Positions 3,682 through 31,804 of a stretch of 64,000 nt of DNA are shown here, piece by piece. The stretch lies in NCBI RefSeq assembly GCF_055900595.2, contig NZ_CM148325.1; one strand, written 5' to 3'. The notes beneath the pieces were generated by a model, which worked only from the letters and a program-made list of their open reading frames with translations, did not search any database and was not told where the DNA came from. The position numbers and the translations under genes were made by a program. The first letter of the stretch is position 1. The number at the start of each line of letters is the position of its first letter.

Positions 3682-4229
3682 TGAATAGTACACACCACTA
3701 TGAGCAGTTGATTGAAATTTTTAATAGCTGCTTTGCCGATGAATTTAATACCCGTCTGATTAAAGGCGACGACGAACCGATCTATCTTCCTGCTGATGCG
3801 GAAGTACCGTATAACCGAATCGTCTTTGCTCACGGCTTTTATGCCAGCGCAATTCATGAGATTTCGCACTGGTGTATTGCCGGGAAAGCGCGCCGTGAGC
3901 TGGTTGATTTCGGCTACTGGTATTGTCCCGATGGACGCGATGCCCAAACGCAAGGCCAGTTTGAAGATGTTGAAGTGAAGCCGCAGGCGCTGGACTGGTT
4001 GTTCTGTGTGGCGGCGGGATATCCGTTTAATGTCAGTTGCGACAATCTGGAAGGGGATTTCGAACCGGACCGCGTGGTATTTCAACGGCGGGTACATGCA
4101 CAGGTGATGGATTATCTGGCAAACGGTATTCCCGAGCGTCCGGCACGCTTCATTAAAGCACTACAAAATTATTATCACACGCCGAAACTTACGGCGGAAC
4201 AGTTCCCGTGGCCGGAAGCGCTCAACTGA
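3681..4229 (+). CDS. epmC: Elongation factor P hydroxylase
   Basis: 182-aa ORF MNSTHHYEQLIEIFNSCFADEF... matching EpmC/YfcM; start overlaps yfcA stop. Confidence 0.88.
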   Translation: MNSTHHYEQLIEIFNSCFADEFNTRLIKGDDEPIYLPADAEVPYNRIVFAHGFYASAIHEISHWCIAGKARRELVDFGYWYCPDGRDAQTQGQFEDVEVKPQALDWLFCVAAGYPFNVSCDNLEGDFEPDRVVFQRRVHAQVMDYLANGIPERPARFIKALQNYYHTPKLTAEQFPWPEALN

Positions 4230-4262: not shown

Positions 4263-4541
4263 ATGATCGCGGAGTTTGAATCACGCATTCTGGCATTAAT
4301 CGACGGTATGGTTGACCATGCCAGTGATGATGAGTTGTTTGCCAGTGGGTATTTGCGTGGCCACCTGACATTAGCCATCGCAGAACTGGAAAGTGGTGAT
4401 GACCACTCCGCCCAGGCGGTACATACGACCGTTAGCCAGAGTCTGGAAAAAGCCATTGGTGCCGGTGAATTGTCGCCGCGAGACCAGGCGCTGGTGACCG
4501 ATATGTGGGAAAATCTGTTTCAACAGGCGTCACAGCAGTAA
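4263..4541 (+). CDS. yfcL: Uncharacterised small protein YfcL
   Basis: 92-aa ORF in the conserved position after epmC, preceded by AGGAAAGAAG 5 nt upstream of the ATG. Confidence 0.8.
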
Positions 4542-4561
4542 GTTGTTGGCGTCTGGAGCGT

Positions 4562-4836
<275 letters not shown>

Positions 4837-4850
4837 GCTGCCAAAGCAGA

Positions 4851-6923
<2,073 letters not shown>

Positions 6924-8300: not shown

Positions 8301-8310
8301 GGCACTAAAG

Positions 8311-8340
8311 AAAAAGGGAACCCGATGGTTCCCTTTTTCA
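8311..8340 (+). terminator. Intrinsic terminator downstream of fabB (bidirectional appearance)
   Basis: AAAAAGGGAACC-CGAT-GGTTCCCTTTTTCA: GC-rich stem with a 3' T-run and a 5' A-run. Confidence 0.75.
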
Positions 8341-24185: not shown

Positions 24186-24959
24186 ATGTCCGAGAATAAA
24201 TTAAACGTTATCGATTTGCACAAACGCTACGGCGAACACGAAGTGCTGAAAGGGGTCTCACTGCAAGCGAATGCCGGTGATGTCATAAGTATCATCGGTT
24301 CGTCGGGATCGGGGAAAAGTACCTTTCTGCGCTGCATTAACTTCCTCGAAAAACCGAGCGAAGGATCGATCGTCGTTAACGGCCAGACGATCAATCTGGT
24401 GCGCGATAAAGACGGTCAACTCAAAGTCGCCGATAAAAATCAGCTGCGCTTACTGCGCACACGCCTGACGATGGTATTCCAGCACTTCAATCTCTGGAGC
24501 CATATGACGGTGCTGGAAAACGTCATGGAAGCGCCGATTCAGGTGTTAGGCCTGAGCAAGCAGGAAGCGCGCGAGCGGGCGGTGAAGTATCTGGCGAAAG
24601 TCGGGATAGACGAACGTGCGCAGGGGAAATACCCGGTGCATCTGTCCGGTGGTCAGCAACAGCGTGTTTCCATCGCGCGGGCGCTGGCGATGGAACCGGA
24701 AGTTTTACTGTTTGATGAACCTACCTCGGCGCTCGATCCTGAACTGGTAGGCGAAGTGCTGCGTATTATGCAGCAACTGGCAGAAGAGGGAAAAACCATG
24801 GTGGTGGTGACTCACGAAATGGGCTTTGCTCGCCATGTTTCTACTCACGTCATTTTTCTCCATCAGGGGAAAATAGAGGAAGAGGGCGCGCCAGAACAGT
24901 TATTCGGTAACCCGCAAAGTCCTCGTCTGCAACAGTTCCTTAAAGGTTCGCTGAAATAA
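24186..24959 (+). CDS. hisP: Histidine ABC transporter ATP-binding protein
   Basis: 257-aa ORF with Walker [10 protein letters not shown], signature LSGGQQQRV and Walker [12 protein letters not shown]. Confidence 0.95.
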
Positions 24960-25154
24960 TTCCCTCTCCGGTGGCTAACGCTGCCGGAGTATTTCATGGG
25001 GAATTTGCGAGTCCGCTTCCGCTGAAATGTAAAAGTTGCAGTCCGCTAAAAATACTTCTGAATTCGCTGTCCAAAGATAAAAACTGCCTGCTGCATTGGG
25101 TGTAAATCGTGGTTATTGTCGCGTCATCTTAAATTTGAGGGGTGACGGAACGCC

Positions 25155-26045
25155 ATGACAATATCGACAACTTCCACGCCGCATGATGCGGTATTTAAAT
25201 CTTTTTTACGCCATCCAGACACCGCGCGGGATTTTATTGATATTCATCTTCCCGCGCCGCTGCGCAAACTGTGTGATTTAACGACGCTCAAACTGGAACC
25301 AAACAGTTTTATTGATGAAGATCTGCGGCAATATTATTCCGACCTCTTGTGGTCTGTGAAAACGCAGGAGGGAGCGGGTTATATTTATGTGGTGATAGAG
25401 CACCAAAGTAAGCCGGAGGAATTAATGGCTTTTCGCATGATGCGCTATTCCATCGCGGCGATGCAAAACCATCTGGATGCAGGCTATAAAGAGCTTCCAT
25501 TGGTGATCCCAATGCTGTTTTATCATGGTTGCAGAAGTCCTTATCCTTATTCACTCTGCTGGCTTGATGAATTTGCCGAGCCTGCGATAGCCCGCACAAT
25601 ATATTCATCGGCTTTTCCGCTGGTGGATATTACCGTGGTGCCGGATGACGAGATTATGCAACATCGCAAAATGGCGCTGTTGGAGTTAATTCAGAAACAT
25701 ATTCGTCAGCGCGATCTGTTGGGATTAGTCGACCAAATTGTTTCGCTGCTAGTTACAGGGAACACTAATGACAGACAGCTAAAAGCCCTGTTTAATTACG
25801 TATTACAAACGGGAGATGCCCAGCGTTTCCGTGCATTTATTGGTGAGATAACAGAACGCGCACCACAAGAAAAGGAGAAACTGATGACCATTGCTGACAG
25901 ATTACGTGAAGAAGGCGCAATGCAGGGCAAACACGAAGAAGCTCTGCGTATTGCTCAGGAGATGCTGGAGAGAGGTTTAGACAGAGAATTAGTTCTGATG
26001 GTGACCCGACTTTCGGCAGACGATCTTATCGCGCAAAGCCACTAA
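25155..26045 (+). CDS. rpnB: Recombination-promoting nuclease RpnB (Transposase_31 / PD-(D/E)XK family, domesticated transposase-like)
   Basis: 296-aa [36 protein letters not shown]... typical of YfcI/Rpn paralogues; no flanking terminal inverted repeats seen. Confidence 0.85.
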
Positions 26046-26092
26046 TCCTGTAACACCGGGAATTAACTGGCGGATGTTTGCAGTACACCACA

Positions 26093-26986
26093 TCAGTGAA
26101 CAACATCCGCCAGCGCCTCTTCTAAATCGTACCAGCGAAACGCAAAACCCGCTTCTTCCAGCCTTTTGGGCAAAGCCCGTTGTCCACCTAATACCAGTAC
26201 TGAAGATTCGCCCATTAACAGCCGAATGGCGGTCGCGGGGACGCGCAAAATGGCCGGACGATGCAGTGCATGACCGAGCGCATGGGCAAATTGTTCATTG
26301 CGTACCGGGTAGGGCGAAACCATATTAAACGACCCGCGTAGCTCGTTATCCAGCAGCCAGAGAATACCGTTGACCATATCATCGATATGAATCCAGGCCA
26401 GATACTGCCGACCAAAGCCAATCGGCCCGCCCAGGCCAAGACGAAACGGCGGCAGCATTTTACCGAGGATCCCGCCGTCCGGTGCAAGCACCACGCCGGT
26501 ACGCAGCAGGCACACACGTGTTTTGTCGCTTTGCGCCCGACAGGCAATCTCTTCCCAACGAGCGCAGAGTTTGTGGGTAAATTCGTTATGCGGCGGTTCC
26601 TCTTCAGTAACAACCACTTCACCTAAGTCGCCATAATAGCCCGTTGCCGAACCGGAAATGAGTACCGACGGCGGCGTGTCGCTGGCATTAATCAAATCGA
26701 CCAGTTTTTGCGTAATATTCCAGCGGCTTTGGCAGAGACGCTCTTTTTGCTCGTGAGTCCAGCGTTTATCAGCAATCGGTTCTCCGGCCAGGTTGATTAC
26801 CGCATCAACGCCGTTGAGGTTACTTTGATCGGCAAGCCCTTGCCATAGTGTCACCCGGGGGCCGATAACGGAGCTGGCTTTCTGCGGGTTACGCGTCACT
26901 ACCGTGATTTGATGGCCCAGCTCCAGCAAACGCGGAATCAAATGGCGACCAATTAATCCCGTCCCTCCGGTGATCACTATGTTCAT
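26093..26986 (-). CDS. yfcH: NAD-dependent epimerase/dehydratase-family protein
   Basis: 297-aa ORF with N-terminal Rossmann motif ITGGTGLIG. Confidence 0.88.
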
Positions 26987-27006
26987 GCAGCCTCCCGATA
27001 TGGCGG

Positions 27007-27369
27007 TTAACGCTGCCAGCTTAAGGTCATGGATACCGAATCAGCGTAGCGCAGCGCGTGCAGTTTATCGATCTCTACTTCAGCATACGTTACCCAGTGA
27101 TGTTCACGTGCGATATCGAGCACATCCTGAGTTAATTTCTCCAGCAAAGAGAAACGGTTATTCTCTACGTGCTGAATAATGTTTTTCGTTACGGTGCGAT
27201 AATTCAGCGCATCGTTGATATCTTCGCTGGTGCGCGCTTTATCGGCGGGGTAGTGGATCGTCACGTTGATAACTATATCCTGACGGTTGTTAATTTCTTC
27301 TTCCTTAATTCCGATAAACGTACGTAAACGAAGGTTCTTTATACGAATAATAGCGGCAGGTTGTGCCAT
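27007..27369 (-). CDS. folX: Dihydroneopterin triphosphate 2'-epimerase
   Basis: 120-aa [28 protein letters not shown] (FolB/FolX fold). Confidence 0.92.
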
Positions 27370-27425
27370 TGCAGGTTCTCCGTTGTTTTACTTAGGATTA
27401 AATAATACACGAGAACCTGTTTCTG

Positions 27426-28904
<1,479 letters not shown>

Positions 28905-31733: not shown

Positions 31734-31764
31734 ATAAAAAACCGGAAATAGTGACTATTTCCGG
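31734..31764 (-). terminator. Intrinsic terminator downstream of pta
   Basis: Reverse strand reads CCGGAAATAGTCACTATTTCCGG followed by TTTTTT; a second hairpin ATCCGCAGC...GCTGCGGAT lies at about 31772-31794. Confidence 0.7.
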
Positions 31765-31804
31765 TTCAGGTATCCGCAGCGCAAAGCTGCGGATGATGAC
31801 GAGA

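Follow-up and report, generated by a model that had tools for sequence, protein, structure and literature searches.

What does a perfect 12-bp inverted repeat do at the junction of two convergent Escherichia coli genes, rpnB and yfcH, and which of the two transcripts does it serve? The repeat lies in the window, the whole 64-kb stretch of DNA analysed here, which comes from an E. coli strain other than K-12 (94.7% identity to MG1655 over 25950-26250). An earlier note on this DNA had described the repeat as no canonical intrinsic terminator and had supposed that it might be an RNA stability or processing element shared by both transcripts. We examined the geometry, folding and conservation of the repeat, together with the published transcript ends and Rho data of K-12.

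A stable hairpin spans the end of yfcH

As shown in Table 1, rpnB and yfcH run towards each other, and the intergenic gap between them is 47 nt. The left arm of the repeat begins 21 nt after the rpnB stop codon (26043-26045), and the stop codon of yfcH (UGA, 26093-26095, minus strand) sits in the hairpin loop. Both the repeat search and our own scan returned two arms of 12 nt each, 100% complementary, with 23 nt between them. The perfect 12-bp repeat described earlier is therefore present across the junction, with 12 of 12 positions paired in both scans; its start had been placed one base late (26068 instead of 26067), and its loop, put at about 21 nt, measures 23 nt. The location of the right arm within the last yfcH codons was correctly described, and the arm matches codons 291-294, CTG GCG GAT GTT, which encode L-A-D-V. 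The left arm forms the 3' half of the stem in yfcH-sense RNA and the 5' half in rpnB-sense RNA.

Table 1 Features at the rpnB-yfcH junction, in window coordinates.
Feature	Position	Strand	Description
Plus-strand genes		+	hisQ-hisM-hisP-rpnB
Minus-strand genes		-	yfcH-folX-yfcG
rpnB CDS	25155..26045	+	recombination-promoting nuclease, 296 aa
rpnB-S intragenic antitoxin ORF	25884-26045	+	53 aa, from Met244 of RpnB, AAGGAG upstream
yfcH CDS	26093..26986	-	TIGR01777-family oxidoreductase/epimerase, 297 aa
Left arm CTGGCGGATGTT	26067..26078		intergenic; repeat search and separate inverted-repeat scan
Loop	26079..26101		23 nt; holds the yfcH stop codon and the last two sense codons
Right arm AACATCCGCCAG	26102..26113		reverse complement of yfcH codons 291-294
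rpnB-specific segment	25065..26066	+	1002 nt; right breakpoint directly before the left arm
Homologues of K-12 yfcH 3' ends 2422633/2422635/2422637	26057..26061	-	inferred for the window strain
Homologue of alternative K-12 yfcH terminus 2422778	25916	-	stem-loop antisense within rpnB
Homologue of K-12 Rho region peak 2422836	25858	-	low resolution, 800-nt windows
Candidate Rho loading region	25867..26066	-	C-over-G-rich untranslated yfcH-sense readthrough RNA

The chance expectation for such repeats was obtained from 200 dinucleotide shuffles of the window. Counting perfect inverted repeats with arms of 12 nt or more and loops of 3-40 nt, the window holds four, where 0.15 would be expected, and at least one such repeat occurred in 28 of the 200 shuffles (p ~0.14 per window). 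The class is clearly enriched in the window, but one such repeat alone is not beyond chance, and its mere presence is a hint and no proof. Three further perfect repeats, of 12-13 bp, lie at 8310-8339 (GAAAAAGGGAACC, loop 4), 31740-31766 (AACCGGAAATAG, loop 3) and 59218-59280 (ATTTTATTTTCC, loop 39), and the first two look like ordinary terminators.

The folding-energy calculation, suggested earlier as a check on the repeat, showed a stable structure on both strands. The plus-strand RNA folded at -22.6 kcal/mol (z = -4.7) and the minus-strand RNA at -26.0 kcal/mol (z = -4.0), and on neither strand was any of 200 shuffles as stable. On the yfcH-sense strand a small inner helix forms within the 23-nt loop and leaves an apical loop of ~5 nt. 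Among 13 Escherichia alleles the fold energies span -18 to -30 kcal/mol.

We next considered the tails of the hairpin, taking at least 5 U in the 8 nt directly past the stem as a canonical U-tract. Both tails of the window allele, UUAAUUCCCGG / UUAAUUCCCG on the yfcH-sense strand and CGCCUCUUCUAAAUC / CGCCUCUUCU on the rpnB-sense strand, are without such a tract. The yfcH-sense tail has 4 U among its first 6 bases in the window allele, 3 U in 8 in K-12 (UUAACUCCCG) and zero U in the allele that lacks rpnB (CGGAAACGCU, CGGAAACG). The terminator scan called the hisP terminator at 24966-24989 and left the junction hairpin uncalled, and an Rfam scan of 24500-27500 with E up to 10 gave no match at the hairpin. 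The absence of a U run and the silence of the terminator scan bear out the earlier view that this is not a canonical intrinsic terminator.

K-12 yfcH transcripts end just past the stem

All transcript data come from K-12 MG1655 and were carried over to the window strain by homology; the K-12 junction allele differs from the window at 5 of 80 positions and has a stem of 11 bp. In K-12 (NC_000913.3) yfcH ends at 2422601, and the last base of the stem is 2422627. Term-seq placed the dominant yfcH 3' end at 2422637 in LB at OD 2.0 and at 2422635 in M63, classed as "primary yfcH / antisense yfcI" (Adams et al. 2021, PMC7815308 Supp. file 1), and the list for LB at OD 0.4 is without a yfcH 3' end (PMC7815308). 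An independent TRS study reported "Primary" yfcH termini with peaks at 2422633 and 2422635 (PMC10687069 Supp. Data 2/3), and an "Alternative primary" terminus at 2422778, by a second stem-loop antisense inside rpnB (PMC10687069 Supp. Data 3). In two independent studies, the mapped K-12 ends thus lie +6, +8 and +10 nt past the stem. The TERMITe tables hold no entry for yfcH or rpnB.

Readthrough beyond these ends is recorded in bicyclomycin (BCM) DirectRNA-seq. There a region of Rho termination, on the yfcH strand and antisense to yfcI, was placed at 2422836, with upstream/downstream counts of 179/18 without BCM and 93/123 with it (Rho score 13.15, p 2.1e-26; PMC7815308 Supp. file 2). The peak of this region lies ~209 nt past the stem, antisense to rpnB, and its signal, taken over 800-nt windows, could partly stem from Rho-suppressed antisense promoters inside rpnB and not from yfcH readthrough. 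The yfcH-sense RNA over +1..+200 is mildly enriched in C over G (C/G = 1.41; 94th percentile among the 200-nt windows of the window). For the opposite direction, neither K-12 3'-end dataset (PMC7815308, PMC10687069) contains an rpnB/yfcI 3' end, which low rpnB expression could hide in both, and neither reports a Rho region antisense to yfcH. Of the proposed stability or processing element shared by two transcripts, the part concerning yfcH is supported by K-12 3' ends 6-10 nt past the stem in two studies, and the part concerning rpnB found no such counterpart in these datasets.

The hairpin probably protects the 3' end of yfcH mRNA

We consider it fairly probable that the inverted repeat is the 3'-terminal stem-loop of the yfcH transcript and protects a Rho-terminated mRNA, with Rho limiting antisense transcription into rpnB. 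The transcript ending at the hairpin is probably folX-yfcH. The hairpin, the K-12 3' ends, the BCM-dependent readthrough and the C-over-G skew are observations; from here on we infer the order of events, including the trimming by exonucleases. RNA polymerase on yfcH would mostly run past the hairpin, because the hairpin has no U-tract. The ribosome would leave at the UGA in the loop, and Rho would load on the C-rich, G-poor untranslated RNA antisense to rpnB and halt transcription within roughly 200 nt. The 3'-to-5' exonucleases (PNPase, RNase II) would next shorten the RNA, reaching the stem-loop near +151 before the junction hairpin, whose stability would block them, so that at steady state a sharp end would be left 6-10 nt past the stem. 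In this way the hairpin would determine where the mature yfcH mRNA ends and probably how stable it is, and antisense transcription into rpnB would be limited by Rho, not by the hairpin. The same structure forms in rpnB-sense RNA because the DNA is palindromic, and the hairpin may do the same job there. Several points count against a protective role: an intrinsic terminator would likewise release its transcript at +6 to +10, all transcript data are from K-12 with its 11-bp allele, the BCM signal is coarse and may owe something to antisense promoters, the yfcH end is missing from the OD 0.4 list, the stem shows no covariation, and the hairpin is weakened on the yfcH-sense strand in E. whittamii and absent outside Escherichia.

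For Rho-dependent transcripts, a class of precise steady-state 3' ends just past stable stem-loops without U-rich tails has been described, in which the RNA downstream is enriched in C over G and the stem-loops guard against PNPase and RNase II (Dar & Sorek 2018, PMC6061677). The yfcH hairpin resembles this class in having a stable U-less stem-loop, with folds of -22.6 to -27.6 kcal/mol, and a precise 3' end a few nt on, followed by C-over-G-rich RNA and BCM-dependent readthrough. It differs in that half of its stem is coding and the stop codon lies in the 23-nt loop, and the exonuclease dependence that marks the ends of the class is for the yfcH end a candidate property. The yfcH hairpin is probably an ordinary member of this known class, and its 3' end already stands in published genome-wide tables. 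That the 3' end of the yfcH transcript is now defined matters little beyond annotation; the hairpin also adds one more Rho-dependent gene capped by a U-less stem-loop, half of which is coding sequence.

Termination at the hairpin itself

The same ends could arise if the hairpin were a weak non-canonical intrinsic terminator, at whose partly U-containing tail (UUAAUUCC) a fraction of the polymerases would be released at +6 to +10, with Rho clearing the readthrough. We regard this as unlikely. The distance of +6 to +10 from the stem is the usual one for intrinsic release, and the window allele offers 4 U in the first 6 bases of its tail. A canonical intrinsic terminator has a loop of 3-8 nt, and on the yfcH-sense strand the inner helix closes the 23-nt loop to an apical loop of ~5 nt. 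Other genera have yfcH hairpins with a real U-tract, GCCCGGT-aagc-ACCGGGC CTCTTTTATTT in Salmonella and a hairpin ending CCGGAATGGCGATTTTAT in Citrobacter. Like the hisP intrinsic terminator (24966-24989), the yfcH hairpin is G+C-rich, lies just past its gene and has a 3' end 6-10 nt on. Unlike a canonical intrinsic terminator, however, it has no U-tract, a far longer loop and strongly Rho-dependent readthrough. The tail carries no U run, least of all in the rpnB-less allele, and the terminator scan did not call the site. Moreover, under BCM the downstream coverage equals or exceeds the upstream coverage (123 vs 93), so little autonomous termination is apparent.

Collision-driven bidirectional terminators were reportedly proposed by Ju et al. 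in 2019. Applied to this junction, the hairpin would pause polymerases in both directions, and head-on and trailing collisions would end yfcH and rpnB (or hisP readthrough); this reading appears improbable to us. Its setting fits well, with convergent genes, a 47-nt gap and a hairpin encoded on both strands, and one-sided substitutions in the stem retain rpnB-sense pairing. The yfcH-rpnB pair is also among the 165 convergent excludons found in at least 50% of 58 MG1655 transcriptomes (ExcludonFinder, PMC12288877), and the collision model of Wang et al. 2022-23 accommodates hairpins unlike intrinsic terminators (bioRxiv 10.1101/2022.10.23.513370). The model describes its terminators as Rho-independent, however, whereas the Rho score of 13.15 on the yfcH strand is among the clearer ones, and no rpnB 3' end occurs in either 3'-end dataset. 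The yfcH hairpin therefore shares with bidirectional terminators and convergent excludons its place between convergent genes, its readability on both strands and the excludon listing, but those terminators have 3' ends on both strands and are Rho-independent, whereas here an end is on record for the yfcH strand only and Rho dependence is strong.

The antitoxin part of rpnB

Zhong et al. 2023 (PMC10400941) describe rpnB as a gene within a gene, of the toxin-antitoxin kind. In K-12, residue 29 counted from Met244 is D, which matches the D29 stop mutant of Zhong et al. 2023 (PMC10400941), and 4 of the 7 amino-acid differences between the RpnB proteins of the window strain and K-12 fall within the 53 residues of rpnB-S. 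The Rho region (~25858) lies just beyond the rpnB-S start, so yfcH readthrough is antisense to the whole rpnB-S ORF.

The hairpin and the Rho site could act as a yfcH/rpnB control point. The share of polymerases that get past the hairpin, or the efficiency of Rho, would tune the antitoxin mRNA (by transcriptional interference or RNase III cleavage, as in an excludon), and on the other strand the hairpin would stabilise the 3' end of the rpnB-S mRNA. We hold this to be quite improbable. If true, the stabiliser role would explain the substitutions that preserve rpnB-sense pairing. As mildly useful context, rpnB is a toxin-antitoxin/defence gene whose antitoxin part is overlapped by antisense readthrough from yfcH, checked by Rho, and E. 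coli genomes differ in whether they carry the rpnB cassette, one breakpoint of which falls at the base of the stem.

The hairpin is kept within Escherichia and absent outside it

Of 5426 complete E. coli genomes, 5355 carry the 80-nt junction, each at one place, and 4685 of these 5355 genomes have the rpnB-yfcH arrangement. About 70 E. coli genomes are without the junction altogether. The perfect 12-bp allele is rare, since only 14 of the 5426 genomes are at least 99% identical to the window over the 80 nt of the junction; over 25950-26250 about a dozen are. Val294 is encoded by GTC in K-12 and most strains, as against GTT in the window, and the GTC allele forms 11 bp with a top pair of U.G (plus strand) or C.A (minus strand).

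The REP/BIME repeat family was excluded, given one place per genome in 5355 genomes and no Rfam family. Like REP/BIME elements, the yfcH hairpin is a palindrome at a convergent junction that could stabilise an upstream mRNA; unlike those elements, which have many dispersed copies, it is single-copy, half coding and without the REP consensus.

The arrangement with rpnB is dispensable for the hairpin. In 670 of the 5426 complete genomes, including Nissle-type strains, rpnB is missing and both arms are kept, which indicated that the hairpin belongs to the yfcH side and not to rpnB, and its earlier description as a feature of the rpnB-yfcH junction needs to be corrected in this respect. The hairpin is intact in E. 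coli HCP4S3_I4, where an internal stop has led to the annotation of rpnB as a pseudogene. E. coli SCU-301, which is without the junction, has a longer rpnB allele of 300 aa; the island next to it includes nhaC and a gene for a trans-sulfuration enzyme, and an 11-bp perfect inverted repeat, CTGTCTCTTGC-N10-GCAAGAGACAG, stands directly past its rpnB stop.

Among 13 Escherichia sequences, the left arm varies in 2 of 12 columns; its non-coding flanks vary more, the spacer in 9 of 21 columns and the non-coding part of the loop in 6 of 14. Compensatory double changes were found at 0 of 12 pairs in these sequences, and one-sided changes at 6 stem pairs. In E. whittamii the yfcH-sense fold falls to -19.3 kcal/mol, with a plus-strand fold of -25.8, and the hairpin is decayed on the yfcH-sense strand of this species and in Escherichia sp. 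MOD1-EC7003.

Of the 6 variable pairs, 5 keep G.U on the plus (rpnB/hisP-sense) strand and have A.C in yfcH-sense RNA, an asymmetry that does not reach significance (about 0.11). Pairing is thus kept on the rpnB-sense strand although the mapped 3' ends are all on the yfcH strand. Read on the plus strand, 4 of the 6 stem changes turn C into T, and a C-to-T mutation bias may be an alternative cause of the asymmetry.

For relatives, 80 yfcH loci were compared, with the yfcH stops located by tblastn-anchored coordinates. The repeat was absent outside Escherichia in these 80 loci, and every genus examined had some hairpin past yfcH, non-homologous between lineages. The earlier note had named transcript ends elsewhere, together with a lack of conservation in relatives, as what would speak against its reading. 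Within E. coli the opposite was found, the K-12 ends being at the hairpin and the repeat being kept, and beyond Escherichia the repeat is absent.

These comparisons bear on a further possibility, that the repeat is a chance or neutral palindrome, for example a small template-switch inverted duplication of the yfcH codons CTGGCGGATGTT, at which exonucleases stop incidentally. A 12-bp inverted repeat does turn up in 28 of 200 shuffled windows, CTGGCG is a very common E. coli hexamer, and a neutral origin would agree with the lack of compensatory changes, the absence outside Escherichia and the decay in E. whittamii and Escherichia sp. MOD1-EC7003. But the repeat stands just where a 3'-end structure is expected, and 3' ends are mapped at it; its non-coding arm varies less than the flanks, it survives the gain or loss of rpnB, and a hairpin follows yfcH in every genus examined. 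We therefore judge a neutral palindrome to be very improbable.

A breakpoint of the rpnB segment lies at the base of the stem

In the rpnB-less genomes, a 27-nt filler, ATCTATATTTATTCATCAGCGTTTCCG, replaces window positions 25065-26066, and yfcH is reached 158 nt after hisP. Homology to the window resumes at exactly 26067 in all 670 genomes, and the left breakpoint is likewise sharp, just after GAATT. A simple deletion between GAATT repeats was excluded as the origin of this allele by the unique 27-nt filler, and the presence of the same filler in all 670 genomes suggested that it probably goes back to a single historical event. The rpnB segment was found to have neither terminal inverted repeats nor a clean target duplication.

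In K-12 (NC_000913.3) each of the five rpn genes (rpnA-E) faces a convergent gene downstream, namely bioH, yfcH, panC, yjiR and yfaU, and three of these five pairs figure in the published excludon list. The rpnC gene lies within the panD-panC-panB cluster, and at its junction with panC stands a perfect inverted repeat of 10 bp, TAACTGGCGC-N11-GCGCCAGTTA, beginning TAACTGGCG (1910-1940 of the examined locus), with UUAAUUU coming next on the panC-sense strand. The 3' structures of rpnA, rpnD and rpnE are unrelated. We rejected the possibility that a TTAACTGGCG hairpin is carried or targeted by rpn genes in general, since rpnC has the motif and rpnA, rpnD and rpnE do not. Near-matches containing CTGGCG number 16 in the window against 6.5 expected, the hexamer being very common in E. 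coli, and the motif common to the rpnB and rpnC junctions is most simply explained as a coincidence arising from this abundance.

That the hairpin or a cruciform marks, at the DNA level, the boundary at which the rpnB toxin-antitoxin cassette inserted or recombined is hardly credible: homology in the 670 rpnB-less genomes does resume at the first base of the left arm, and the rpnC-panC repeat also starts TAACTGGCG, but the common filler points to probably one historical event, terminal inverted repeats and a clean target duplication are missing, CTGGCG abundance accounts for the likeness of the motifs, the breakpoint in rpnC-variant strains lies inside the hairpin and not at the stem base, and the 3' structures of rpnA, rpnD and rpnE are unrelated.

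Structures downstream of yfcH in other genera

In Salmonella arizonae and diarizonae a canonical terminator lies 40-51 nt from hisP. Hairpins that differ in this way between lineages reflect the turnover that 3'-end structures commonly show.

Citrobacter, Enterobacter, Kosakonia, Lelliottia and their relatives have a gene for a 175-aa GNAT acetyltransferase between yfcH and hisP. A hairpin stands ahead of this gene, at ~+15 to +70 nt past the yfcH stop (for example 3915-3962 in one locus), and is followed by UUUUAU and then by ATG. It gave no Rfam match, and its arms show apparent covariation (TCGCCATTCCGG/CCGGAATGGCGA, GCCATTGTGGT/ACCACAATGGC, TCGCCATTAC/GTAATGGCGA, TACGCCAT/ATGGCGTA). This hairpin is probably a yfcH terminator or an attenuator of the GNAT gene. 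In a Citrobacter sp. MAG, an rpn homologue 64% identical to RpnB lies between the GNAT gene and hisP (4509-5396), which suggests that such genes were acquired more than once downstream of hisP or that an old resident there has evolved fast.
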